From: Mytilus trossulus
Lineage: Eukaryota
NCBI RefSeq assembly: GCF_036588685.1
Contig: NC_086381.1
Span: 18,352,001-18,416,000, forward strand
Direction of reading: 5' to 3'
DNA: 64,000 nucleotides
Part shown: positions 4,001-59,000 of the stretch, in pieces
How positions within the stretch are numbered: position 1 is the stretch's first letter
Layout of the letters: every line of letters begins with the position of its first letter
The notes under the pieces: model-generated
The model's input: the letters and a program-made list of their open reading frames with translations, nothing else
Databases searched by the model: none
Told to the model about the DNA's origin: nothing
Program-made: the position numbers and the translations under genes

Positions 4001-7000
4001 TTCACATTTACTTTTAATTAAGTTTTATTTATTTAGTTCAATTTATTTAAAATGAGCGTTTTTAGTTTATTACATTACGATTAAATAGATGATTTTTTAA
4101 GTGAAATATACAGTAAACATAAATTCCGTAAATGTTATTTATTTCATTAATTTTCATTATTACATGCAAATTTGTTTACAGGAGATTTGTGAATTCGACA
4201 CATAATTTATTCGTAGTAAAGTTTAATTCTGTTATTTGGTTATATTTAATATTCAACGAAGTTTAGAGAAATCTTTGTTTGTCACTTTGATTTACCTTGA
4301 CAACGCAACAGAACACAAAGAAACTATTTGTTGTTATATGTATATTGAAATCGTACCGATGCAGGATTTATCTCCAGAACAGAAATATTTGCGTATTACG
4401 TAATAGCAAGAAACATTTAATATATTACAGCTTGACATTATCTTTGTATGATGAACTATAAATATTGTGAAATATATTGTATGCATTTATTTGAAATTGT
4501 ATTATAGAGTTGCCATGAGATCTCAGTTGTAATAAAATATAGTTATTTTGGAATTCTTCGTTTTTACCAGGCCAGCTAAAGTCCAGACGACATAGGCTGA
4601 AAGTCAAGTACGACACATAAATAACTGAACTAAAATAAAGAAAGAAAGTGAAATGTTCCTGTCTTTATTTTTGAAATATGAGCCATTGATTTTTTTTTAA
4701 AGATTCTCTATTAAAGAAACATTGGCATCTGTTTTTTTTTTCTCCAAAAGCTGTAATTTTAATCAAAACTTAGGAATACGTGTGAATTAAATCTTTACAA
4801 AATGCCCTACACGCACTTGAACAGCAAAACTGAGGAACAGGGCTCACATTGCTTTTCTTTCTACAAATGCCAGATAAAAGCAAGCACATTATGCTATAAC
4901 AAATTTGAAAGACAATATTGTGTTTTCATCTGATTCTGAAATAGTTCGGAAATCCCCAAAATATATCTTTATCTTTTCATATCTGTCCTTAAGCTGCTTT
5001 TGAAAATTATAGGACCAAACATACCAATAAAACATTCTACGTAAGTTGGGAAATAGTGAAAAAGGGCCACTACAGTACAATATTCAAGGTTGTTTTTGTT
5101 ATTTTTGTTTCGCCTTGTCCTTGCTTTTATTAACGTTACATGACGAATGTATAATTTAACATGTATTTTCAACTATTTTATTCGTTATCTTTCGTCTTTA
5201 CTTCATGATAAATGATAGTGTAGTTGTGGAGAAAATATATAACATTTTCTGCAAACTATAATTGCAGTTGATATAGAGTGCGGAGAAAGTGTAAATGATA
5301 CAGCTAACATCACATTTCTGACCGACGTGGATTACATCACACCTGTGGCCTTATGTAATGGATCAGAAGTAATACTGACCCCTATTGATGATTTTCGATC
5401 AACAATCAATGCCAGCTACCCAGGAGGACAAGACGTCGGATGTATATTTTTGGTAATTTATTTATGCTAGAGGGATCAAATGGGAGATGTGAAGACTAAA
5501 ATCGACATAAAAGGCTACGTAAATTTATTTAGAAATTTTCATCTTATTTAAAGGACCATGTGTGCTTTTATTGGCTTTGTGAGTTCGTCATTCATCTGTT
5601 TCTTTCTAAAAAAAAATCTAAAAAAACAGATTGACACGAAAAGTAGAATTATTTGACGTGCTTGTTCCGTGACACATATATGTATAGTAGCAATACTCGG
5701 CAACAATTACCACATTTTAAACATACTAAACGCCGCTAGGTTGACCGGAGAATTTGCTAATCTTATATCTGTATATGTTACACTAAAACTAAGTCGAATT
5801 GGTTTTTATGTAAGCGTATCTATGTGTACTTATTACTCAATATTATATACTATAAGACTGTAAACGTGACCGTTACCTTTAGATTTGTAAATTCTGTAGA
5901 AAACTTAAGTCTGCATTATTCTTGCAATATATGAAAAAAAAATGTTAAAATATAATACTATCAATGCATTGGGCACGTCAAAAAACTGCAGTGCAGATTT
6001 ACTATTTTAAAGGGGTTATGCCCTTTGGAAATATCAATTATATAGAAAATAAAGTTTTATTTAACAACTTCATGCCTTCATTACTTGTAGAGTGTTATGA
6101 AATTTAGATCATAAGTGCATACGAGTAATGCTTTGACATGTTTGAAAATTAGTGATGATTAACTGTTTTTAAAAGAGTTATGCCCCCTGAAATACCAATT
6201 TATATATTTAGAAAATTGCAATTAAAACAAACTCAGATCTACATTATTTATATCAGTATTGTTATGGGATTTAGATCATACATTAAAATAAGCCATGTCT
6301 TGTGCGAGTTCAAAAAGCACTGTTGTCTATTGTTTTGACAGGAGATTTGTCTTTTTGGAATGTAATATAATTTATTGCATTGTATGCCCACCCACACCTC
6401 TATTTCTATTAACTATATTTATTACAAAAGTTTATAAATGAACATTGAAAATAACGATATATTGAAAATAGCAATGTTAGCGATCTCATGCCTATATTTT
6501 TTGAAAGACATTTATTAAAAGAAAACACTTTTTTTGTTTGAGTTATTGAATTTCAGCAGATCAATATGTACAACGCGAGGGACATGGAATACTGTTCTCT
6601 TATGTTGGGGTGTAAATGACGCGAGGGACATGGAATACTGTTCTCTTATGTTAGGGTGTAAATGACGCAAGGGACATGGAATACTGTTCTCTTATGTTAG
6701 GATGTAAATGACGCGAGGGACATGGAATACTGTTCTCTTATGTTAGGATGTAAATGACGCGAGGGACATGGAATACTGTTCTCTTATGTTGGGGTGTAAA
6801 TGACGCAAGGGACATGGAATACTGTTCTCTTATGTTGGGGTGTAAATGACGCAAGGGACATGGAATACTGTTCTCTTATGTTAGGATGTAAATGGCGCGA
6901 GGGACATGGAATACTGTTCTCTTATGTTAGGATGTAAATGGCGCGAGGGACATGGAATACTGTTCTCTTATGTTAGGATGTAAATGGCGCGAGGGACATG

Positions 7001-10000
7001 GAATACTGTTCTCCTATGTTAGGGTGTAAATAGCGCGAGGGACATGGAATACTGTTCTCTTATGTTAGGGTGTAAATGGCGCGAGGGACATGGAATACTG
7101 TTCTCTTATGTTAGGGTGTAAATGGCGCGAGGGACATGGGATACTGTTCTCTTATGTTAGGGTGTAAATGGCGCGAGGGACATGGAATACTGTTCTCTTA
7201 TGTTGGGTGTAAATGGCGCGAGAGACATGGAATACTGTTCTCTTATGTTAGGGTGTAAATGGCGCGAGGGACATGGAATACTGTTCTCTTATGTTAGGGT
7301 GTAAATGGCGCGAGGGACATGGAATACTGTTCTCTTATGTTGGGTGTAAATGGCGCGAGGGACATGGAATACTGTTCTCTTATGTTGGGTGTAAATGGCG
7401 CGAGGGACATGGAATACTGTTCTCTTATGTTGGGTGTAAATGGCGCGTGGGACATGGAATACTGTTCTCTTATGTTAGGGTGTAAATGGTGCGAGGGACA
7501 TGGAATACTGTTCTCTTATGTTGGGTGTAAATGGCGCGAGGGACATGGAATACTGTTCTCTTATGTTAGGGTGTAAATGGCGCGAGGGACATGGAATACT
7601 GTTCTCTTATGTTGGGGTGTAAATGGCGCGAGGGACATGGAATACTGTTCTCTTATGTTGGGGTGTAAATGGCGCGAGGGACATGGAATACTTTTCTCTT
7701 ATGTTAGGGTGGAAATGGCGCGAGGGACATGGAATACTGTTCTTTTATGTTAGGGTGGAAATGGCGCGAGGGACATGGAATACTGTTCTCTTATGTTAGG
7801 GTGGAAATGGCGCGAGGGACATGGAATACTGTTCTCTTATGTTAGGGTGTAAATGGCGCGAGGGACATGGAATACTGTTCTCTTATGTTAGGGTGTAAAT
7901 GGCGCGAGGGACATGGAATACTGTTCTCTTATGTTAGGGTGTAAATGGCGCGAGGGACATGGAATACTGTTCTCTTATGTTAGGATGTAAATGGCGCGAG
8001 GGACATGGAATACTGTTCTCTTATGTTAGGATGTAAATGGCGCGAGGGACATGGAATACTGTTCTCTTATGCTGTTCTCTTATGTTAGGGTGGAAATGCG
8101 CGAGGGACATGGAATACTGTTCTCTTATGTTAGGGTGGAAATGGCGCGAGGGACATGGAATACTGTTCTCTTATGTTAGGGTGTAAATGGCGCGAGGGAC
8201 ATGGAATACTGTTCTCTTATGTTAGGGTGTAAATGGCGCGAGGGACATGGAATACTGTTCTCTTATGTTAGGGTGTAAATGGCGCGAGGGACATGGAATA
8301 CTGTTCTCTTATGTTGGGTGTAAATGGCGCGAGGGACATGGAATACTGTTCTCTTATGTTGGGTGTAAATGGCGCGAGGGACATGGAATACTGTTCTCTT
8401 ATGTTGGGTGTAAATGGCGCGAGGGACATGGAATACTGTTCTCTTATGTTGGGTGTAAATGGCGCGAGGGACATTGAATACTGTTCTCTTATGTTAGGGT
8501 GTAAATGGCGCGAGGGACATGGAATACTGTTCTCTTATGTTGGGGTGTAAATGGCGCGAGGGACATGGAATACTGTTCTCTTATGTTGGGTGTAAATGGC
8601 GCGAGGGACATTGAATACTGTTCTCTTATGTTAGGGTGTAAATGGCGCGAGGGACATGGAATACTGTTCTCTTATGTTGGGGTGTAAATGGCTGGAAAAA
8701 TAAAACAGATAAAAACAACCCTGACATAGTTATTAAATCGATGCAATAATTGTCTTAAACATACAATAGTAACAAGATGAGTTGGTTTTTTTTTTATCAG
8801 AGAACTTACGGACCTGGAATAGATGTCTACAGCGTGAACATTGAAGTCGCTCACAACGTAAATGGTTCTCTTATTCAAAATGCTGACGATGTCTATTCTT
8901 TAACATGTTCGTTTGGAGATGAAATAGATGGACATGCTAATGCAAGGAAAATCGATGACAGGTATCATACTTCAATACCGTTTCTCTGTGAGGTCTAACA
9001 AATATACGAAAGATTATTAAATGAATATAAAATCCGATAACGTATGGTTTTGATTCAATACACCTAGAGGGAAATACACAAATTTGTAATCACTCATTTA
9101 ACCAACATCAGATCTAAACAAAAAGGGGGACCAACAGAAACAGGCAAAAAAATAGGTAGACACACATCATTAAATAATGTACTTAGGTTAATTAAAAAAA
9201 ACTGTTCATTGTGAGAGATTTTGTTCGACTTGCAAATATCTAGCTTATAATTTTACACCTCTTGAAACAAGACTTGACGGTCATTCTTTTGAAAACATTA
9301 CCTTTTAAATAATCTTTAAAAAAAAACCTAATACAATGTACCTATGATATAAAGTGCCTACAAACCTCTGTTTCAGTCACTTTCCTCCTAAAGCTTTAAC
9401 TGATATAAAATCAACAAACATAAGTACTAATTTGACACTTGATGTCGTCGACTACAGTGGAGTGTCATTAACAGGGAAATTAATACCACTCGGAAAAACT
9501 ATCCGGCTAAAAGGTGAAATATCAGGTAAGTGTATAGCATATTTTGAATCAGTTTGACAATCGGCAATCTGTAGGTGAATAAGCTCTTAATAACCGACAA
9601 TGTGTGGGTCAACAAGCTCGATAATTGGCAATCTGCGGGTAAATAAGCTCGTTAATCGGCAATATTTGGGCGAATAAGCTCCAAAATGGGCAATCTATAA
9701 GGTAAATAAGCTCGTTAGCTTAAACATATTTATTTATAGTGGATTGTGAAACAAGTTTTGCAACTTACTAGTATATTAATTAAAACCCTTTTCACTTTGC
9801 GGGTGCGAGTGCTGCCTTGTAGTGGCATAAGCCTGCTCTTTTTCGAAATCTACAAGGTTGTCTTTAACATGCAAGATATATGGCTCTCTCTGAACACGGT
9901 TCAGCCATTTTTTGTCCCCTTCTGACGGACTATCATTATTTCCTCAAGACCATACTGGCAAATGGTTTCAAGGGAGAGCCGAAAATTCAGTCCCTGAATT

Positions 10001-12169: not shown

Positions 12170-12510
12170 GTTTAAACATATTTATTTAAATATTGGATTG
12201 GGAAACAAGTTTTGCAACTTATATTTATCCCTTTCCACTTTGCAGGTGCTAGTGCCTAGTGTAGCGGCATTAGTCTGCTTTTTTTTTTTTTAAATCTACA
12301 AGGGTGTCTTTTACGTGCAAGAGATACGGCTCTTAACATGGGTCAGCCAATTATCGTCCCCTTCCGACGGAATATCATCGTTTGACCTTACTTGCAAATG
12401 GTGTCAAGGGAAGGCCGAAAATTCAGTCCCTGAAATTTTCATCCCGGAACGGGAATCGAACCAGACATCGTTGTGTTAGTAGTCAGATTAACCACTACAC
12501 CATGGCTCTC
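12170..12510 (-). mobile_element. Near full-length tRNA-derived SINE (Meta-domain-like core)
   Basis: Minus-strand A box tggtgtagtgg (12492-12502) and B box ggttcgattcc (12452-12462); other copies at 9718-10026 and 27574-27660. Confidence 0.75.
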
Positions 12511-12576
12511 AATTTTTTGATACATTAAACATCCGGAATGTTCCTCAGTATTATCATCTTGTTTATTAGTGAGTGC

Positions 12577-12829
12577 TTGCATCTTTTATATTTGAGTTAA
12601 TTTGCATCTTTAATATTCCAGTTAATTTGCATCTTTTATATCACAGTTAATTTGCATCTTTAATATTCCAGTTAATTTGCATCTTTAATATTCCAGTTAA
12701 TTTGCATCTTTTATATCCCAGTTAATTTGCATCTTTAATATTCCAGTTAATTTGCATCTTTTATATCCCAGTTAATTTGCATCTTTAATATTCCAGTTAA
12801 TTTGCATCTTTTATATCCCAGTTAATTTG
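12577..12829. repeat. 25-bp minisatellite, ~10 units, each with ATTTGCAT
   Basis: gttaatttgcatctttaatattcca / gttaatttgcatcttttatatccca units. Confidence 0.92.
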
Positions 12830-13799
12830 AAGTTAAGGTTTCCATACCGAAATTAGACATATACGGATCTTCATCGTAATATTAACACAGGTGGACGACT
12901 GTCATCAACCAAAAACACTCGCAAAAAGGTTACTGGGGTAAAAACTCATGATCACGATTGGTCTCCAAACAGCCTTCAAAACCCTCGTCATTTTGGTTGT
13001 GTTTGATGAATAAACTCATCAACCATGTCCGTCAGCATAGGGATGTTGAATGTAATGCCTTCTGACAAAAGTGTCCTATGCTTTATGCTATGCTTTATGT
13101 TTGGTAAATTTTTGGAACAACTCTCTGATTGTGCGTAGGTGACTAGTTGCATATCTGAATATGATCAACCTTTATATCAAGTTTCAGTCCAAATTTTCCG
13201 CCAATATCTCATTCGACATTCCTTGCTGAATTTGCAAATTGCATTCATAGCCAATTTGTACTCGTCCTGAAAGGCATGCACTCTTATCCACTGTACGTAA
13301 AGCAAACTTCACTCAGACGTAATAAATCATGAAAAATGTGACGATTAAGCTAATAAATTGTCAAGGAATTGTATATTCAAATATACAATTCCTTGCTATT
13401 GTCAACTTCCCATATCTATAAGCAGAAGCTTGCCAACTGTTCCATTACATGCAGTAGGTAAACACACTTCTCCATCAAGTATATACGAGGAACAACGAAT
13501 CAAATTGACACTGATATCACAAAGCTAGTTGCAATATTTCGGTGAAGAAGATTGTTTCTTGATTCGGCTTGACTTTTTGTTCTGATTTGTGGTATCAGCT
13601 ATTTAACTCCAGGTTGTACTATAATATGGATTTTCGAAAAATAAATTGTGGATCCTTTCTGAAGATTCATAAATTATCGAAATGTGCATCTTGTCCAGTA
13701 AAACTGTGGCCTTTAAATGTTATAACTTTGATTAGCTCGGCAACTCTGCAATAGGACTTTTGGTCCTCGATGGTATCACTATCCCAGTAGCTAATACTT

Positions 13800-14530
13800 A
13801 CATGCAGATATGACTCTCAATAATGACGACTTCAGTATGTATACTAAAGAAATTTATCCTGTTGAACTTACTATAAATAAAGCTAATACTAACAATGACC
13901 ACTGCCATTTCCTCGATCTTGATATGTATATCACTAACGGAAAGCTGAATACTAAAATTTATGATAAAAGAGATGATTTTAAATTTCGTATCGTTAATTA
14001 TCCATTTTTAGATGGTGACGTTCCCTTGTCACCATCTTAAGGTGTTTATATATCTCGTACGATTCGCTCGTGAATGTAACAATGTTTTAGATTTTAACGA
14101 GAGAAATTTATGTATTACTGAAATATTATTACACCAGGGTTTTCGAAATCACAAACTAGTCAAAACATTTACTAAATTTTATCATCGGTATAAGGACATC
14201 ATTCGTAAATATAGCTCAACATACAGACTTCTTATACGTTTAGGTATTTCACATCCATTTTTTTTGGAAATATTCTTAATAAAGCACAAAAATGTCAGTA
14301 TTCACCGCAGAAACTAACAGAACCTTTAAATAGACTTATTAAGAAGGGATATAGTTACGATACTGTTGTCAGGTCATTAAAGATTGCATAATTTGGCGTT
14401 ATTATTGATTCACTTATACGGTCTTTGCATCGGAACTAAACACATGTATTAAAAAACAGTTGTTGGCATGACACGGGTTATGTTTTTCTCATATATGTAA
14501 TGATGGTTTGATACTAAACCCCTAACGGGA
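13800..14530 (+). mobile_element. Penelope-like retroelement 3' fragment (RT C-terminal/thumb region, pseudogenised)
   Basis: IYPVELTINK..FLDLDMYITNGKLNTKIYDKRDDFKFRIVNYPFLDGDVPLSPS*GVYI..LVRFAREC..KTFTKFYHRY, with a stop and frameshifts; no GIY-YIG follows the RT. Confidence 0.8.
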
Positions 14531-14683
14531 CTTTGCTTAATTTCGCGCTGGTGAGTAATTTCTTTAAGGATTTTGACTGTCTTTTACTCTTAATAATTTT
14601 CTGTGTAGCAAAGGCTCTTTTCATTCTTTTATCGTTCATCAAAGTTAGTACATTTTGATATACTAGTATATGTTAGACTCAGA

Positions 14684-15243
14684 TCGACGTCCGGCCTCTA
14701 ATCGACGTCCGTTTCTAAAATCGACGTACGTTTCAAAAATCGATGTCCAAATCTGACGTCACATTCTCAAATCAACGTCCAATGTTTTGATACTCGAATC
14801 GACGTGCAATATTTTGATACTCTAATCGACGTCCAATATTTTGATACTTTAATCGACGTGCAATATTTTGATACTTTAATCGACGTGCAATATTTTGATA
14901 CTTCAATCGACGTGCAATATTTTGATACTTTAATCGACGTCCAATATTTTGATACTTTAATCGATGTCCAATATTTTGATACTTTAATCGACGTCCAATA
15001 TTTTGATACTCTAATCGACGTGCAATATTTTGATACTCTAATCGACGTCCAATATTTTGATACTTTAATCGACGTCCAATATTTTGATACTCTAATCGAC
15101 GTGCAATATTTTGATACTCTAATCGACGTGCAATATTTTGATACTCTAATCGACGTCCAATATTTTGATACTTTAATCGACGTCCAATAATTTGATTCTC
15201 TAATCTACGTCCAATATCTTGATACTCTAATCTACGTCCAATG
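14684..15243. repeat. 27-bp minisatellite (~17 units) preceded by shorter degenerate units
   Basis: aatcgacgt[c/g]caatattttgatact[c/t]t; the unit length is divisible by 3, which explains the repetitive ORFs on both strands. Confidence 0.95.
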
Positions 15244-15495
15244 TGACGGCATAACTTGCCAAAACTACGCCCGATAGATTGTTGTCGTCTTAAATCAATG
15301 TCCAATATCAATAAATAATAAATTATTGGTCACAGATAAGACTTTTAGTTTATTCGTTTGAATTGTTTTATACTGTCATTTCGGGGTCTTTTATAGCTGA
15401 CTATGCGGTATGGGCTTTGCGCATTGTTGAAGGCCATATGGTGACCTATAGTTGTGGATAGTTGTATATATATATATAAAGTCTCTGAATGATTG

Positions 15496-18483: not shown

Positions 18484-18980
18484 AGGTACCAGTATTATGA
18501 TTTAGCATGCCAGAGGCACGTTTCGTCTACATAAGACTCACCAGTGACGCTCATATCAAAATATTTATAAAGCCAAACAAGTACAAAGTTGAAGAGCATT
18601 GAGGATCCAAAATTCCAAAAAGTTGTGCCAAATACTGCTAAGGTAATTTATGCCTGGGACAAGAAAATCCTTAGTATTTTCGAAAAATTCAAAGTTTTGT
18701 AAACAGGAAATTTATAAAAAGACCACATTATTGATATTCATGTCAACACCGTAGTTTTGACAACTGGGCTGGTGAAACCCTCGGGGATGAAACATCCACC
18801 AGCAGTGGCATCGACCCAGTGGTGTAAATAGTTTTCAAAGGTACCTGGATTACAATTTAGTACGCCAGACGCGAGTTTCGTCGACATAAGACTCATCAGT
18901 GAAGCTCATATCAAAATATTTATAAAACCAAAAAGTACAAAGTTGAAGAACATTGAGGATAAAGGTGTGCTAAATACTGT
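18484..18980 (-). mobile_element. Non-LTR retrozyme, family A, ~1.4 monomers (355-nt period)
   Basis: Two hammerhead motifs 355 nt apart: 18507-18550 (mutated) and 18862-18905 (core intact). Confidence 0.85.
18862..18905 (-). ncRNA. Type I minimal hammerhead ribozyme (core intact, stem I mismatch)
   Basis: gcttca CUGAUGA guc..gac GAAA cucgcg UC uggcgu. Confidence 0.7.
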
Positions 18981-21541: not shown

Positions 21542-22610
21542 CCTCATTTGGTACAGACATTTTCTTATGTAAAAAAGGTGGATTAAACCTGGTTTGATAG
21601 CAAGCTAAACCTCTCACTTGTATGAGTGTCCCATAAAATTCCTTCATATTGACAACGAAGTGTAAACAAAACAAACAGACATAATAAGTATAAAAGTCAA
21701 AAATAGGGACCCAGCAGTCAAGATTGTGTTATTATCGTAATCACTTTCAAAATAAACATTTGCCATGTCACAAATACACAATAAAGGGATGTATAAGTAC
21801 AGATTTATGTCATATGTATTAAAAAAAAACAAGACATATAGACAAAGCATATCAGCGAAATTGAAAGATAAGAATACAGAAATTATCATTAAGTATGAAT
21901 TACCTCATTTAGTACAGACATTTTCCTATGTAAAAAATGTGGATTAAACCTGGTTTTATAGCAAGCTAAACCTCTCACTTGTATGAGTGTCCCATAAAAT
22001 TCCTTCATATTGACAACGATGTGTAAAAAAACCAAACAGACATAATAAGTATAAAAGTCAAAAATAGGGACCCAGCAGTCAAGATTGTGTTATTATCGTA
22101 ATCACTTTCATAATAAACATTTGCCATGTCACAAATACACAATAAAGGGATGTATAAGTACAGATTTATGTCATATGTATTAAAAAAAACCAAGACATAT
22201 AGACAAAGCATATCAGCGAAAATGAAAGATAAGAATACAGAAATTATCATTAAGTATGAATTACCTCATTTAGTACAGACATTTTCCTATGTAAAAAAGG
22301 TGGATTAAACCTGGTTTTATAGCAAGCTAAACCTCTCACTTGTATGAGTGTCCCATAAAATTCCTTCATATTGACAACGAAGTGTAAAAAAACCAAACAG
22401 ACATAATAAGTATAAAAGTCAAAAATAGGGACCCAGCAGTCAAGATTGTGTTATTATCGTAATCACTTTCATAATAAACATTTGCCATGTCACAAAAACA
22501 CAATAAAGGGATGTATAAGTACAGATTTATGTCACATGTATTAAAAAAACAACAAGACATATAGACAAAGCATATCAGCGAAAATGAAAGATAAGAATAC
22601 AGAAATTATC
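21542..22610. repeat. Tandem triplication of a 361-bp unit of a dispersed repeat
   Basis: Units start at 21542, 21903 and 22264 and are nearly identical; the unit start is related to dispersed copies at 30195-30480 and 61000-61470. Confidence 0.93.
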
Positions 22611-22794
22611 ACAGAACAATGACGGGATGTATAAGTACAGAGCCACGTGATTGTAACAAAGAACATTTAAAGTCATATAGACAAAACATATTATCAAAGA
22701 TAAAAGATATGAATACAAAAATTATCAAAGACCAATGACATAATGATGGGAAGTACAGCGTCAAATAGATACCACCACCAACAGAATAAATAGG

Positions 22795-23201
22795 AAAGCG
22801 ATTTTAGTCTGCATAAGACTCATTAGTGACGCTTAGATCAAAATTGTTAAAAAGCCAAACAGGTATAAAGTTAAAGAGCATTGACGACCGAACATTCCAA
22901 AAGGTTGTTCCAAATATGGCTATGGTAACATCTGACTGGGGTAAGAAAATCCTTAGTATTTCGATTAATTCATAATTTTGCAGACAGTCAACTTATGAAA
23001 ATGACCATATAAGAGTTATTTATGTCAACACCGAAGTGCTGACTACTGGGCTGGTGATACCCACGTGGACGAATATTCAACCCAGTGTTGTAAATAATTA
23101 AGAAAGATACCATGCTTATAGTTTGATACGCAGGATACACATTTCGTCTGCACAAGACTCATCAGTGACTCTCAGATCAAAATTGTAAAAAGCCAAACAA
23201 G
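22795..23201 (-). mobile_element. Degenerate retrozyme family A dimer, truncated by an LTR element
   Basis: Decayed hammerheads at ~22797-22832 and 23128-23171; the sequence switches to LTR at 23202. Confidence 0.75.
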
Positions 23202-23609
23202 TGTAATGTTTATTGGTTATTAAGGTAACAAACAAAAAAAATCTTGTTGTATATATGCATATTTCATGTAGAAGGAATCGCTGTGTAGATTTAGAAGTTT
23301 GGCGGGAGAGTCCGTGGTTGGGTCCATTGGTATGGGGGTGTTTGAGAGGTACCCATGTGTTCGGTATCGGGAACATTTAGAGAACACCCCTATTTATTTT
23401 AAAAATAGTGAATTCGCCCTAAAGTATATAAGTGGGGGAGGAATACAATTCGGGTTATGCCGACCGTGCAAGGGCTGTATAGCCAGTCAAGGTCGTTATA
23501 AACTTCCATTTGTTGTATTCGGGTTATGTCGATGTTCTTACAGAAGAAACTGGCTTATAATAGTGAGTACGCTACATAGCTGTAAGTTTGAAAGGAGGAC
23601 AACTTGTAC

Positions 23610-24275
23610 TTGTCCAAGAACATCAAAGGGATTTGGATAAGTATATTCCCTTTGTTATGATGGCGTATAGGGATTCCGAACATGACACAACTGGACAGAT
23701 TCCAAACAGTCTTATGTTTGGTAGGGAAAGAACAACCCCGTTAGATATCTTGTATGAAATGCCGCCGTCTATTAAAGGAATACCACAACATACATGGGCT
23801 TTGGAACTAAAAGAAATTTTAGATGATACACATTATTTTATTGGGTAAAGAATGCATGGAGAAACGAGGAGATAAAAGAGGTATCATGATTTCAAATTAT
23901 CATATGAAAGTTCAAGTACATGTCTACTTCCCTGTAAGGAAAACGGGAACATTCCCCAAACTGACTTGTTTTTGGACAGGGTTTTTCATAATTTTAGAGA
24001 AAAGTGGTGACCTAACATATAAGGTTGACTGTAGTATCCGAGGGACCTCACAGATCATTCATGTGGATAGGATAAAACTCAAGCACAAGCAGGTGTTGAG
24101 AGGGGAAATGTATGAAGACATTGATAATCCCCAAGTAACAGAACCACGTGAAGCTGATATACTAAAATTATTTGTTAATGTCATAGATCAGGATGACAAA
24201 ATAGGTATAGAAGAAGAAAGTGACCGCCGTGAAAGGAAAAGACAAGCCTGGATGGCTGATTATATACTTGATTAA
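23610..24275 (+). pseudogene. Gypsy integrase C-terminal remnant
   Basis: ORFs 23588-23848 and 23823-24275, joined by frameshift. Confidence 0.85.
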
Positions 24276-29000: not shown

Positions 29001-32000
29001 CTAAAAAAACAATCGTTTTATTTATTTACTGATTACTCAAATACATAAGACTCAGAGAATTTATCATTTACACATTAAAAACAAGTGAAACTGCGAGCTA
29101 CTGCTCACTGATGATACCCCCGCCGCAAGTGGATAATATTAATAGTGTAAAAATATGCAAGTGTTCGGTAAACAGGAAGTTGTCGAGTGATGAATCTGAA
29201 AACGCATCACACGGTATAGTCCTTTTTTTTGGACATCTTATGTTGCTTCTGATATTAAATTGAGGTGAGAATTTGTATTGATTTATATTAATATTATTAA
29301 TTTGTATATTTTAACAATTTTGATTCGTTTAGGGATAGTCACATGCTAAACTATATTTTCGAAGGTAGAGAGAAAACGGCGGATAGCAAAAAGCATATTG
29401 ACCGGCAAAAAGCATATTGCACGGTTATTTTTAGAATATCTAAAAACCGATATACTTTGAGACGTCATGTAATGAATTTCAGGATATTGTTTAACGTTTT
29501 GAAACAAATGATATCTGTGATCGATTATTTGACGAAGAATATCTTCAGATACATAAGATGTAAAAAAAAAAAAAAAGTTAAATGAAATAACAACTAATAC
29601 GTTGTTATTTTCAAGGAGATAATGTAATATCTATAAAGTTCCAACAAACCTAAATGACGATTTTAAAACAAACATGGTCGGAAATTAATAATATAACAAA
29701 TATAGCCTTTGTATAAGGTCAATACAGGATATATCGACCCAAAGAAGTATATCGACCTCGGACTTCGTCCTCAGTCAATATACTTCTTTCAGGTCAATAA
29801 ATCCTTGTATCGACCTCATACAAAGGCTATATTTGTATAATATCAATACTAATTCTCACCTCAATTTAATATGAGAAGCAGCATTTTAAAATTTGAAAAA
29901 CAGTGTTTGCACGATTCACAAGGTATTGATTACTTATATGCATGGAAACAACATCAAGTTTTTTTCCAATCAATTACGGGTCGAGTTCTAAAGTCAAGTG
30001 TAATAATAGTGAAGATTCAAATTGACTTTACTATGTAAGTATTAACGACATATCAACACTCATTGATTCTCAAGTTATTGCACGAAAACGATTCACAGTG
30101 CAACTTTCCAATCATTCAAAGTACATAACTTCTGAAGGGAAAAATAAGAAATCGTCAACATCGAACATTACCTACATTGTATGACCACATATAAATAGTA
30201 AAATCACAAAAATACTGAACCCTGAGATAAATGTACAACGGAAAGTCACTGATTAATGTCAAAATCAAATGATAGAACACATCAAACGAATGGAAAATAA
30301 CTCTCATATTCCTGACTTGGTACAAGCATTTTTCAAACATGGAGAATTGAACCTGGTTTTATAGCATTACACCTCTCACTTGTATGACAGTCGCATCAAA
30401 TTCCTTTATATTAACAACGATGCATGACAAAAACTGACATTATAGATGAAATTGTCTTATTAGGAGTACTACAGTCATCACTGTGTCACAATCTCAGTAA
30501 GAACAAAAACAAACATTGAAACTTCAACTTGAAGATCATTTTTTCAACGATTTACCAATAAAAATTATGCACCTGTCCTAAGTCAGGAATCTGATGTATA
30601 GTAGTTGTCGTTTGTTTATGTAATTTATACGTGTTTCTCGTTTCTCGGTTTTTTATATAGATTAAACCGTTTGTTTTCCCGTTTGAATGGTTTTCAATAG
30701 CTTGTTGTACGGTGTGAGCCAAGGCTCCGTGTTGAAGACCGCGCATTGACCTATAATGGTTTACTTTTATAAATTGTTATTTACACGGAGAGTTGTCTCA
30801 TTGGTACTCATACCATATCTTCCTATATCTATTGAAAAGGCATCAATAACAACAATATTATTGAAATTTGAAAATCATTGATTAAATCATTCCCTTGTAG
30901 TTCGTAGATATAAATGATACCACATCCTAAACCCGCCAATCCGCTATACCACAACCCATAACCGGGAAGCATTGATGCAATTGCTTTTACACATATGTAT
31001 ATTTTGGTTCTTTTTTCTATGAAAGACGATGTATGATTACCGAACGATACATTTGAAATTTTCAAAAAAAGGTTTAAGCTATTTAATGAGACAACATTAA
31101 CAAGATACTTAGATTAAATAATAAAATTAACGGTACCAATTTTCATGCACCAGATGCACATTTCGACAATACTCTTCAGTGATGCTTGTGGCCAAAATAT
31201 TTGAAATCCAAAGCTTATATAAAAGATGAAGAGCTATAATCCAAAAGGTCCAAACAGTATAGCCGAATTCGTGAAAGGAATCAGAGCTTTGCATGAGGGA
31301 GATACATTCCTTAATTTATAATAATTTCTTATACTTTGTAGCAGCAAATTTTAATAACACAAAGAATTCGTATTTTCATGCCAGTACCGAAGTACTGGCT
31401 ACTGGGCTGGTGATACCTTCGGGGACTAATAGTCCACCAGCAGAGGCATCGACCCAGTGGTATTAATAAAATTAACGGTACCAATTTTCTTGCACCAGAT
31501 GTGCATTTCGACAATACATGTCTCTTCAGTGATGCTCGAGGCCAAAATATTTGAAATCCAAAGCTTATAAAACATATGATAAGTTAATGAAAGACACAAA
31601 TGTTAAAAACAATTCAATGTTACCTCGAATGGTTTCCTCTGAATACTCATTGCATAAGTAGAAAGGAAGATAACACATAACATAAAAGAGAATAATGAGA
31701 ACTCGAAACGGAATGTTCAGAGGGGAAGGTATCTTATGTTCGTATTCAATCACAACTGAGTGTCGATGGTAACGCCATTTCTGACTGGATTTTGTCTTTA
31801 TCAAATCAAATCGTGCACTAAAATAAAAAAATATATGTAATCAAAATATAAAATGAACATATGAACACCATAAGAACAAGGGAACCTCACCATCTAAAAA
31901 TCATCTCTTTGATAATAAATTTGGTATTAATGTAAATTTGTACAGAACTTGTTTGTATTAATGATTTATTACTCATCATACTCCCTGATAACAGACATAT

Positions 32001-50000: not shown

Positions 50001-53000
50001 AAAAAAATCGTTAAATTTTCAGATAAAACGAACTTTCTGGTATGTCCAGATTTCATGACCGTATATCACTAGTCCATAGACTAATGACTATTTGTCCTTG
50101 AAAGGCTATTTATTTTTATAAGCTTTAAGCTTTGACGCCATCCTGTGACGTCATAACGTCGAACTATTTTTCAATTGGATTTTGAGAAATAATTTAATGC
50201 TATATATAAACGTCAAGCTGGATTCTCCACTAAACTCGGTAAATTCGACGGACCTGAATATCCGGCCAGATAAAATAAATCAAACATTCTAGAAAACGGG
50301 TCAAATTCTACTGAATTAGTTGCAACAAAGTTGCAATTTATTTTATACTCTCCTAAAGTGAAATAAGTTTAACTTAAAAAAAAACCGGAGAATATTATCG
50401 TCAGCATCGGATCGAATTGCAAATTATTTTATCATTAATTTGGGAAATTATTTGAAATATTTTAACACAAACAAACCCATAGAATATACAAATTTGTGTA
50501 CATGCACACATTTCTAGTCGTTAATTAAACTTTTATTGCTAAATTAGTTCTTAAAGGTGCGAGATACATCTCCTTCACAGTCCATCCCCACAAAAAAATT
50601 GCTTCAGCGTTATGAAGTCACATGGTGCTGTCAAATCAACAACAAAAAATATCCGTTCGAGACGTCATAACTAAGGATTTTCTTGTCCAAGGAATAGATT
50701 ACCTTAGCCGTATTTGGCACAACATTTTGGGATTCTGGATCCGCAATTCTCTTCACTTTGTACTTTATTATGAGCGTCACTAATTAGTCTTATGTAGACG
50801 AAACGCGCGTCTGGCGTACTAAATTATTTACACCACTGGGGCGATGACACTGCTGGTGAACGTTTCGTCCTCGAGGGTATCACCAGCCCAGTAATTAGCA
50901 CTTCGGTGTTGACATGAATATCAATGATGTGGTCATTTTTATAAATTTCCTGTTTACTAAACTTTGAATTTTTCGAAAACTTTAGGATTTTCTTGTCCCA
51001 GGAAGAGATTACCTTGGCCGTATTTAGCACAACTTTTTGGAATTTGGATCATCACTGCTTTTCAACTTTGTTCTTGTTTGGTTTCATAACTATATTGTAT
51101 GAGCGTCACTGATGAGTCTTATGTAGACGATACGCGGGGCTGTCGTACTAAATTATAATCCTGGAACTTTTGATTACTATTATTTGGACTACGTATATTC
51201 AAGTCTTCCTCTTTTAGAGATAAAATAAACACACATCATATCTGTCAATCAACGTATGGTGGTGACCATAAATTGTAGTATATAATTTTTGATTGCAATT
51301 GCTAATTCTGAATAATTTGAAACTGATATAATCCGTATAATGTAAAACGATCGTTTCTTATGAATTGATATACGTATACGCTATGCAATGGAAAGGGTTA
51401 GGTTTCATGGGTATACTTTTGTTGTCGGTTTTATTTAATTACTAGACGTTATAGAATTGACTATGCAATATATTGATATGTGTATATCTCTACCTGAACA
51501 TGCTGAATGTCAGTTGGACTTTTACCCTGTGTTTGCATATCATAGCCACCAAATAATTCCTTCTTCGATAAACTGTCTATTTCAGCGACATACTTAGAAA
51601 TAAAATCTATTTGGCTCAAGTTCATAAGATCTGTTGTCAGAAACGATTCATCTGCAACATAGATCGAACAAAATGATTTTTAACCCACATCTCCATTAAT
51701 TTATACACGTATCAAAATTGGTATAAAAAGCAGCCAACAAAGATTTCTTAAATGACACCGGTTTTAGATATAGCTATGGCCATAATGTATTACTATGTAT
51801 TTAGCTTGTAGTTCCTTAAATATATTTTTCTGATTACCATGTTAATACTTATACACATAAGCGTATATAATCACAACTTATTTTTGAATTATTCACTTTT
51901 CGCTAAGTACCCAGTGACTAATTTGAAACAGATAAACACGACACATTACCATACCTCCTCTTTTTAAATAAATTTAAATGGGCTAAAAATATAATCTTTT
52001 GCCCTTACTTTGATGTTCCAATACGTCATAAATCTATGTATTCGGCCTCAAAAACATATGGTTTGAAATCAGCTGTTCATGGCTATTAAATAAATATATG
52101 GTATATAAAGTTTGCACATGAAGTACAAGACTGTCCTTCCTGGATCATATCGATGACAAATGTTGTGCTATTCGCAGGCAAAAAACTTGTATTCCTAACA
52201 TAGAGCACAAAAGCTGCTAGTCAACCAGAAAATACAGAAAACCACATTGTTAAATTCTCCAGATCAAAAGGGTTTCTACCAAAATATATGCATTTGGGCA
52301 GCAACAAATTGACTATTTAGTTCATTTTTTTGTCGAACATAATAAGTGAAGCTACATGATAACGGAGGTCACAGCATCAATGTCTCACGATGGAGCTATT
52401 AAACGACGGATGGTACAGTGATGACATCATTTGAAATTGTAATTAAGAGTATAAATAACAATTTGTGTTTTGAAAGTGTTATTTTTAAATACGCAACTTT
52501 TGTATAATAGCACCTTTTTTCTCTTCAAATGACCATGCTCGCATTATACCATCGGTTAACTTTTCCCATAGTTCCTTATGACTATTTTTCTTTACATTAA
52601 ATATTGAGATCTGCAACAAAAGTTAAATCATATCAAAGTATGTTCACAAATATGATTCAATTCACATTAGATGGGAAATGACTGCACTGACTTGCAAATA
52701 AACTAATCATAGATATCAGGACTAAATTTTGTATATACGTCAGACGCGCGTTTGGTGTACAAAAGACTCATCAGTGACGTACGAATAAAAAAAAAGTGAA
52801 AAAAGACAAAATAAAGTAAACGTTTTGCTAAATACAGCTAAGGTAATTTAATCTTGAGGTAGAAAAGCCTTAGTATTTCAAAAATTCTATTAAATTTTGT
52901 AAACAGTTAATTTATAAATATAACCATATCAATGATAATTCATGTCAGCACAAACAGGGTTTAAAATAACTAACCATTTACTTATATGAATCATATGGAT

Positions 53001-56000: not shown

Positions 56001-59000
56001 GAGGAAAAACTAAACTAATAAACTTACTCTTTAAGACATAATGCAATAAGATCCGCTGTTCCGCCAGTGCCTTTAACAACTACAACCGATATGTTTTTGT
56101 AGATAGCTCGAATGACATGTTCTAGTGTGTCTAATCCACCATTTATTACAAACAAAACAACCGGAACTCTAATTTCTGAAAATTTGAGCGTAATGAGTAA
56201 TAAAAAAGACTCATAATATATGAAGTTTCATCCTAAGTTTAGTTTACAAGAGCACAATCATGTGTTTACATTTTGCCAGCACGTTTTTTTATATCCAAAA
56301 ATGGAGTACAATGAATTATTGTGAATTCCGATTGAATAATACAAGGTAATATCATTTTTAATTCAAAGCTTATTAGTGACATTTGTCAATGCCAACAATT
56401 AAATCAACATCCCTATTTTGTAACTTTCATTTTTATTTAAAAAAATCGTCAACATTAATGTTCATGACATCATTCATAATTGACACAAGTGCAATCGCAC
56501 ACGATGTACGACATATTTTAATGTATGATTCTATATTTAATGACAGTTTCATCAAAATAGATATTTTTCATTTTTCAATATATTTTTTTCTTCTTTTTTC
56601 TTTTTTTATCTCCGACGCCACCTTTTGATGATTTGATGGTTGCAATTGCTCTGCGAACACATCGTCAGTAAACTTAATTACGACCATCAAATCAACATTT
56701 TAAGACGTCGGTACTTACAATTCAATACAGTTATCTCCTGACTTTTAAAGATATGGAAAATATATTCATTGTTTTAACAAGATGACTTAAGAATTGATTT
56801 GCCTAGTTTAGTATTTAAAGATAAGAATATGAAGATTTGGTGTGATTGTCAATGAGACAGCTCTCTGCCAAAGACCAAATGACTTTAGGTTACAATACGA
56901 CCTTACAAAATAAGCAAAACCAATACCACATAGCCAGCTATTAAAGTCGAAGATTACCAACAACGTCATAGCAAATGTTCTTTCTATTAATATGTAATAG
57001 CAGTAAATTTTGTGAATTCTTTATACGTGGAATGCTGTTCACCTGTCCTTGAATATCAAAACAAAAAAACTAATATACCTTTGAAAATCCCAGATGGTTT
57101 ATTTAAATTTTCTTTTTCTCTTAAAGTTACATCTTCGAATTTAACTCTCCCCTCTGCATTGATGTAGTTCTCTATTTCTAAAAGCTAAAAAAGGTATAAC
57201 AAAAATGTTTGTTTTGCAGTAATTGCTTTATTCTTTCATAACTTGCTCCACTTTACCCAAAAATATTTTCAAACGCCATCTGAACTATCTTTCAAGATTT
57301 TCAAATGATTTTTTTAGATATACATCAATGCATAAGCTATTTTTATTACGTTCAATTTCAAATTGTTTTTTTCATACATGGAGGAAAGTATTGTGACGAT
57401 GTTGTGTGTATTTTGTTTTTATTCCAACCAAACATATTAATAATAAACTCGTCATAGATACCAGGATTAAATTTCGTATATACGCCAGACGCGCGTTTCG
57501 TCTACAAAAGACTCATCAGTGACGCTCGAATCCAAAAAAGTTAAAAGGCAAAATAAAGTACGAAGTTGAAGAGCATTGAGGACCACAATTATCAAACGTT
57601 AAGTCAGCTACTCCTGCTTTGTTCTCTTTATATATACAACAATTAGGTTATTTTTGAACGACTTGTTTTATATTAAAAAACAACAATATGTTGATTATGT
57701 ACCATGGCTAGTGTTACCTAAAATGTTAATTTTTTAATAAGAATTACTGCTAACAACAAAAACGTATAAGGAATATTCATTAATCACGGGACATTGAAAC
57801 TCTTGAAAGATAAAGGCATACCTGTAATTTGGTCATGGCTTTCTGATTCAAAATACTTTCCTTGTTTAACCTTATCTATTTCTAAGTGATAACTGTTCTT
57901 ATGATTATTATAATTGTAATAAAATGTAAAATGAGTATCAAATCAAACTTTTACTCTGCATGATAGTGGAGAGATTCATAGGTTTGCTTTCGTTTTTCAA
58001 TCGTACTTGTAACTTCTAGAATAGTAAACTTCTCACTTTTTTATCTGAGCGTCACTGATGAGTCATATGCAGACGAAACGTGCGTCGGGTGTATAAAGTT
58101 ATCAAAGGCGCCAGAATTATAGTTCAATACGTAAGACGCATGTTTTGTCTACATAAGACTCATCAGTGACCGTCAGGTCAAAATAGTTATAAGCCAAACA
58201 TGTACAAAGCTGAAGAGCATTGATGACCCAAAATTCTAAAACGTTGTGCTAAATAGAGCTATGGTATTCCAAGCTTATTTTAATTTTCTTATCAATATGA
58301 GTATTTTTGTTGTTTTCTATAGATGCTTACCTTCATTAAATCGAGTTTATCATTGTTTTCTGTTGCCTACAACGATAAATAGTAACGATAAAAAATTATT
58401 ACAACATACGCTTTAAAACGTCACCAACAAGACACGTTTGAAACTGCGTTTAACTCAATGTTTGAAGAAACCATGACTGAAATGAATTACAGGATAATAT
58501 CAAAAAGTTTGTCTTGAATAGAACAAAATGCAAAAATAAATATAAATCGATCTTTATTTTTTGTTATTCGATCTGTTACATGTGTATTGTCAAACTAATG
58601 CAACGTGAAACAGAATTAATGTTACAAAAATTAGTATTTAGTACCGTGGTCGCAAGACTTTTCAAACACATGTTCAGTGCATACATGTATAACCCTTAAA
58701 CCGCATCTGCATAGCATTAAATTAGTATGTCAGCTGTAATGGTCTAATATACAAATACAAAAAAGAGATAGGATTACTTAGGAGTAAACTAAATTGAACC
58801 TACCAGATAGCATATACAGAGTATGTAAACAAATATAACATGCATAATAAATACGGTTGTTTGTCTGTTGATATCTGACTGAATAGATTATATGCTGACA
58901 GACAATTGTTATAAAATCAAGTAAAGGATTTTTGTTTCATAATCATGTTTCAGATTTTATTGTTTTAATTACTCACTGTAACCTTTCCTGAGCCTGAATT

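Follow-up and report, generated by a model that had tools for sequence, protein, structure and literature searches.

A nested stem-loop shared by Mytilus retrozymes and the starts of Naiad retrotransposons, a probable start signal for the Naiad reverse transcriptase

Retrozymes in a 64,000-nucleotide stretch of the Mytilus trossulus genome (contig NC_086381.1, positions 18,352,001 to 18,416,000; hereafter the window, numbered from its first letter) carry a 58-nt RNA module whose sequence and predicted pairing show homology to the start of Naiads, a clade of Penelope-like retrotransposons (PLEs). The module is a nested, bulged stem-loop, common to these retrozymes and to Naiad starts, that probably provides a dock for the Naiad reverse transcriptase (RT), with copying starting ~5 nt upstream of it. 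Retrozymes, Naiads and internal initiation were known before; what is likely new is the conserved structure, together with its likely role as a Naiad RT start signal taken over by retrozymes. Table 1 lists the features discussed below.

Table 1. Positions of the module, its stems and the associated elements in the window.
Feature	Position	Strand	Basis
Module core, family B	31401..31458	-	Sequence, shuffle folding, monomer folding; Naiad covariation by eye
P1, family B	31458-31452 with 31407-31401	-	
P2, family B	31450-31445 with 31417-31412	-	
CUGC/A internal loop between P2 and P3, family B		-	
P3, family B, followed by bulged U 31436	31439-31437 with 31422-31420	-	
P4 hairpin, family B	31435-31431 with 31427-31423	-	
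P5, 8-bp C(UUCG)G hairpin adjoining P1	31380..31399	-	Reads and pair counts
AUG after the hairpin, kept in A, A2 and B	31377..31379	-	
Type I hammerhead, family B, predicted cleavage between 31498 and 31497	31492..31535	-	Sequence
Spacer from cleavage site to P1, with the main 3' terminus register (31464) of family B insertions	31459..31497	-	
Second, terminal hammerhead and spacer of the insertion that carries the 31401..31458 module; stops 5 nt before the P1 position	31119..31186	-	
Module and hairpin of family A, with decay private to this copy	18742..18820	-	
Family A copy with deletion-shortened spacer	50835..50913	+	
Family A copy, module 5' half deleted, hairpin intact	23024..23086	-	
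Old B-like copy: hammerhead, spacer and decayed module, cut off within the UUCG loop	13659..13799	+	
C-terminal part of a broken, 5'-truncated Naiad RT with the beginning of its 3' UTR, fused to the old retrozyme copy in the same orientation	13813..14530	+	

The host elements belong to two families, A and B, with monomers of 355 and 350 nt that can be aligned end to end. Their units have the properties of retrozymes, being short (within the 150–450-nt range), non-coding (no ORF of at least 90 aa over 31119–31560), and terminally redundant or tandem, with a type I hammerhead in each unit; the hammerhead core is present in 16 copies in the window. The Rfam model Hammerhead_1 scores 22.6–33 bits on six A-type copies, under its cut-off of 34, and does not match the B hammerhead. 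An antisense hammerhead look-alike in A was rejected, as it is without A6 and is missing from B. The non-LTR retrozymes of Mytilus galloprovincialis (Cervera and de la Pena 2020, PMC7229834) are similar in the features compared, with a type I hammerhead, 350–390-nt units and two ribozyme families; according to the accessible text of that paper, mussel retrozymes cleave themselves, are ligated into circles and accumulate mainly as full circles, and PLEs are proposed as their partner, although that text specifies neither the family of the partner nor a motif for recognition. Two further observations concern hammerheads in the window. Reads coming loose at 31493 and 31534 belong to a further family with a B-type hammerhead core and other flanks, and two hammerhead copies at 58038–58290 stand head to head (58055, plus strand; 58166, minus strand), resembling inverted 5'-truncated copies of PLEs.

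The units are expressed. In three raw RNA runs from one study, 83–89% of the reads over the module have their first mates on the plus strand (1373 versus 235 and 1443 versus 308 for family B, 3139 versus 394 for family A on contig L024). With the usual library orientation, the RNA is thus the ribozyme strand; circles and tandems look alike in such reads.

The 58-nt block had been reported in a preliminary description of the window at 31401–31458 and 18763–18820 (both minus strand) and 50835–50892 (plus strand), with a partial copy at 23045–23086 (minus strand), and it was found at all these positions, as were the inner-stem variants of both families and the two C(UUCG)G hairpins. An additional, old copy, the fifth, is located at ~13754–13799 (plus strand). 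A model built from eight copies matches the window strongly at these five positions and weakly at three AT-rich ones (E 0.017–0.37), and the core CUGC-UGG-U-GGA ... UCC-CCR-A has two exact matches in the window and none in 100 shuffles. The earlier statement that families A and B differ over most of the monomer had to be abandoned, since they are homologous throughout, with 185 of 305 columns identical outside the module; within it, 54 of 58 positions are identical, so that the module is clearly more conserved than the rest. The spacing of ~35–45 nt between hammerhead and module stands for B, where the module begins 39 nt from the cleavage site, and is somewhat exceeded in A (47 nt). With the hairpin included, the shared block comprises ~93 nt, and family A reads come loose at its borders, at 31375/31376 and 31468. 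The covariation between A and B at the inner-stem pair 31427/31431 is real, and the suspicion that the GATG/CATC form reflects CpG decay proved sound: such decay, private to one copy, is its most likely origin, because in family A the inner stem usually reads CG/CG (L024; in run X22, 877 of ~1240 reads at 31427 and 31431).

Beyond the window, a metagenome scan for the module gave 24 matches, three of which are true, representing family A (L024), family B (L036) and a third subfamily, A2 (L038). Scans of viral contigs gave 1, 21, 0 and 43 matches; the single one (L001) and the 43 are due to chance on reading, and the 21 were assessed from the list of matches. Stems P1 and P2 separate the two groups, with 12–13 of their 13 pairs formed in all five intact retrozyme matches versus 4–9 in the 43 chance core matches from viral contigs (at most 11 when free insertion is allowed). 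The retrozyme copies at L036:700–1215 and L038:1–400 lie beside coding DNA of bacterial appearance; they come from contigs of marine metagenomes, the assembly of which is probably chimeric.

No module copy matches any of 4227 Rfam families at E values up to 1. In HDV-like ribozymes, P1.1, P4 and J4/2 are located between the 3' strands of P1 and P2, and inspection of both strands by eye leaves no room here for P1.1, P4 or the catalytic J4/2. Pol III promoters of tRNA-derived SINEs combine box A with a conserved box B further downstream; the box-B look-alike in the module carries G in place of T54 and differs from one Naiad to another, T-runs follow inside the unit, and this reading was rejected. 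Pairing of the module with the hammerhead was also rejected: the inner stem of A complements 9 nt of the A hammerhead, with no counterpart in B, and the module folds locally.

The predicted fold is a succession of nested stems (P1–P4, Table 1). On the ribozyme strand, the region 31376–31465 folds with z = −5.3, none of 200 shuffles being as stable (plus strand, −3.7), and for the two decayed A copies z lies between −1.9 and −2.5 whichever strand is folded. In both circular monomers, the module folds locally, with predicted probabilities of 0.75–1.0 for P1, P2, P4 and P5. The preliminary description had instead proposed a multi-stem junction built on a gcuggug/caccagc stem, which would reach ~−15 kcal/mol versus ~−26 for the nested fold and has a predicted probability of 0.00 in both circles, together with a possible pseudoknot and a GAUGCC/GGUAUC pairing; the latter turns out to be an ordinary nested stem. 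Nor are two crossing stems both kept, as they would be in an H-type pseudoknot, since the gcuggug/caccagc stem is formed in 62–63 of 91 cells among 13 Naiads compared by eye, with no two-sided change (chance controls, 144 of 301); part of its excess over the controls is due to bases shared with P1 and P2. The retrozyme copies do not separate the two folds (n = 8; 210 of 240 cells paired, 87.5%, in the nested fold, and 176 of 192, 91.7%, in the other), and P1, P2 and the core are invariant among them. Among the best 40 differences in the read tables (153 and 59 further ones lie beyond these), two-sided changes between A and B occur at 31381/31398, 31384/31395 and 31385/31394 in the hairpin and at 31427/31431 in the inner stem.

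The UUCG hairpin P5 is specific to retrozymes and covaries, with two-sided changes between retrozymes at three of its eight pairs; one pair is seen as U-G, U-A and C-G, and its U-G form pairs on the ribozyme strand only. At L024:537, variant reads amount to 34 of 2903 versus 29 of 282 (UUCG enriched in sense), a difference given no weight here because the expressed copies form a subfamily. The hairpin is not seen in the 50 Naiad starts viewed, where the ATG of the ORF stands in its place, and the AUG that follows it in the retrozymes probably derives from the initiation codon of the Naiad ORF. P5 itself would be a retrozyme addition that stabilises or insulates P1.

The evidence for homology to Naiads comes from supplementary data of Craig et al. 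2021 (PMC8557442), in which all 11 instances of the core 11-mer stand at Naiad starts and none is present in the Chlamys or Hydra files. Among the starts viewed (50 of 54 consensi; Hpol, Asuum, Ptep and Lpol were left out), 17 open with the core and the P1-P2-P3-P4 fold: 16 clear cases (nine bivalve, three hemichordate, one toadfish and three Acropora) and the ctenophore Beroe, in which one P4 pair is compensated. The module is doubtful in three (Scon, Ppla, 3_Chem) and absent from 30. A count by eye covered 13 bilaterian Naiads, with several closely related families among them (three from oysters and two from Mytilus). Pairing holds in 84 of 89 cells of P1, with two-sided changes at five of seven pairs, and in 72 of 78 cells of P2, with such changes at five of six; together 156 of 167 cells are paired, and each family forms 11–13 of the 13 pairs. 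P3 is nearly devoid of covariation because the core barely varies. Four Naiad families have extra sequence between P2 and the core, forming a hairpin in three, and in the two published Mytilus Naiads P1 is unlike that of the retrozyme module and a hairpin is inserted. Naiads differ from the retrozymes in that they encode EN-RT and, according to the accessible text of Craig et al., have no canonical hammerhead, whereas the retrozymes possess a hammerhead and the additional UUCG hairpin and lack an ORF. All 17 module-bearing Naiads are listed in the supplement as lacking a (TA)n target preference, and the Acropora and Beroe modules have a common motif in the P4 loop.

The window itself holds a Naiad remnant. 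Its RT fragment (13813–14439) has relatives 73–89% identical over 75 aa, two of them with the Naiad DKA motif. Over 13659–14530, the old retrozyme copy, cut in the UUCG loop, is fused to this fragment, possibly by a template switch or a later insertion; the junction is a single instance and by itself no proof. The remnant 3' UTR (14465–14530) contains what we take to be the 5' half of a truncated SECIS-like element (AUGA, then AAA). No RT domain was found by Pfam in the pieces of the remnant, and five of six window motifs derived from it have no match in the Craig supplement. Elsewhere in the window there are tandem arrays at 6424–8550 (46-nt units), 12502–12876 (25), 14655–15350 (27) and 21542–22611 (361), as well as decayed integrase-like and downstream ORF pieces at 23567–24275 that look LTR-retrotransposon-like by eye, the piece tested having no Pfam match.

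The 3' ends of insertions relate the module to reverse transcription. In family B, reads come loose at 31464 into unrelated AT-rich flanks in all four runs (86 reads in X22, 91 in X23 and 106 contigs in X1, with agreement of 0.38–0.44, and two contigs in X15), and in family A they do so at L024:612–614, likewise in four of four runs (at least 269–1056 reads or contigs per run, agreement 0.37–0.40). L024:613 is the register of 31464, and ends in both families lie 4–6 nt upstream of P1. Since this register holds across distances from cleavage site to end of 34 nt (B), 42 nt (A) and ~47 nt (A2), the insertion end follows the module, not the ribozyme. Within the window, five of the 16 hammerhead copies scored continue into a module and 11 are terminal, nine of these stopping 0–7 nt before P1 and two at −17 and −31. 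Three Naiad consensi that retain a terminal duplication (Naiad_Olur, Tgra and Pmar) stop short of the P1 position by 3, 3 and 7 nt, at borders set by curators. As copies stop a few bases before it, the module likely marks the RT start. The role of a cis-element for RT recognition, one of the options raised in the preliminary description, thus gains support from the constancy of the insertion ends as well as from the presence of the same module at the opening of autonomous Naiads.

On this basis, the following course of events can be proposed. Read-through RNA would be cut by its hammerheads and ligated into a 350-nt circle, and the Naiad protein would bind the near-invariant core, consisting of the CUGC/A loop, UGG/CCR, the bulged U and GGA/UCC. 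The Naiad endonuclease would nick AT-rich DNA, and the RT would prime in the U-rich stretch upstream of P1, copying the spacer first, then the hammerhead and the remainder of the circle, so that the module would come last. Short copies would therefore consist of hammerhead and spacer without the module, and copying for more than one lap would yield terminally redundant copies. In Naiad tandems, the module of the next unit would serve the upstream unit in the same way.

Borrowed RNA structures that recruit a partner RT are familiar from SINEs, which share 3' tails with LINEs; those tails are located upstream of a terminal start and form the first part to be copied, whereas the module would lie downstream of an internal start and be copied last. 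In telomerase, a structured RNA is located just 3' of the copied template, and the likeness of the module to it is an analogy only. Closer in geometry is Poseidon_Ac (Frangieh et al. 2024, PMC11167929), where, according to the available part of the paper, the RT starts inside the RNA, 3' of the hammerhead, and insertion ends mark the start. Reverse transcription in vitro begins there at +111–118 and requires RNA to +172, that is, ~55–60 nt 3' of the start; this arrangement matches the one proposed for the module and provides a precedent for an internal start. Poseidon_Ac, compared here by geometry, differs in belonging to another PLE clade, in having its element inside the ORF and, as far as that part of the paper goes, in having no defined conserved structure class. 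Li et al. 2026 (bioRxiv 10.64898/2026.07.22.740005) also relate animal retrozymes to PLE pLTRs; the portion available deals mainly with vertebrates and a Xenopus tree and includes no mussels, Naiad link, motif or mechanism. The motif is not mentioned in the accessible text of Craig et al. on Naiads (PMC8557442) or in the text supplements of PMC4918200, although the figures of the latter may conceal one, and the consulted part of a 2020 review (PMC7761336) describes the repeats of animal retrozymes as without a conserved motif indicating the partner. No published description of the motif was found in the literature covered, to which subscription papers and Repbase notes do not belong.

Four other explanations of the module were weighed. 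Its location ~10–25 nt before the Naiad ATG makes a role in 5' UTR translation or as an internal promoter possible, in which case its retention in retrozymes would serve transcription or reflect descent, and the insertion end would be caused otherwise. The AUG context is indeed retained in retrozymes, and promoters reside in PLE pLTRs (PMC8557442, available text); however, the module is far better conserved than the remaining monomer in retrozymes, which are non-coding, its covarying stems use G-U pairs valid on the sense strand alone, the end register is constant over three spacer lengths, and the box-B-like 11-mer is not conserved in Naiads, all of which makes an expression element unlikely. 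It is very unlikely that the module is an unclassified self-cleaving ribozyme which cuts a few nucleotides upstream of P1 and replaces the hammerhead in Naiads, with the RT starting at the cut end, much as HDV-like ribozymes process the 5' ends of R2. Such a cut would fix the end, and it would suit both the lack of an Rfam match and the position of the module at the very start of elements that are without canonical hammerheads (PMC8557442, in the text available). Nevertheless, the ends vary over 3 nt in reads and 0–7 nt in the window, no base is conserved at the end, the core sits far up the stem, and mussel retrozymes, mostly full circles, already possess a hammerhead (PMC7229834, accessible text). 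RNA ends show no pile-up in reads at the module-side end, and equally none at the hammerhead site.

The end could also be set at the DNA level, by a Naiad endonuclease recognising or resolving the module sequence in DNA or cDNA, and the endonuclease of Drosophila virilis Penelope is reported to require its own tail sequence (as given in the available part of PMC11167929). Against this, terminal copies are without the module in DNA, G-U wobbles and the UUCG loop point to RNA, and Poseidon ends have been demonstrated to be RT start sites (same source), so we regard it as highly improbable. Finally, it is very unlikely that the multi-stem junction or a pseudoknot forms, even as an alternative state acting in circle stability or ligation of retrozymes, for although its 7-bp complement is perfect in five of five intact retrozyme matches scored, shows one two-sided change (from the old copy) and survives in part in a number of Naiads (all seven pairs in Tgra, two of them G-U), the fold is ~10 kcal/mol worse, at least three pairs are broken in 5–6 of 13 Naiads, three of the seven 3' bases are already fixed by P1 and P2, and, by A-form geometry, a 3-nt linker would have to bridge ~12 stacked pairs.

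If docking of the Naiad RT on the stem-loop is true, the mobilising partner of these retrozymes would be a Naiad, which is unexpected, because PLEs had been suspected through the hammerheads they have in common with retrozymes and Naiads are without them. More tentatively, we can speculate that the module is an ancient RT-docking domain, present from ctenophores to fish, which alone fixes the internal start of a telomerase-related enzyme, and a portable 58-nt tag sufficient for the Naiad RT, with the hammerhead circles being parasites made of a ribozyme and a captured Naiad start; any circular RNA with this tag would then become a rolling template for the Naiad RT. Both the enzyme that mobilises animal retrozymes and the way in which Penelope-like RTs choose an internal start are described in the literature as unsolved, and a 58-nt structure at a fixed distance from the insertion end brings both questions within one in vitro assay. 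As Naiad RTs and telomerase RT have the IFD in common, the complex would also be a small model of template positioning.
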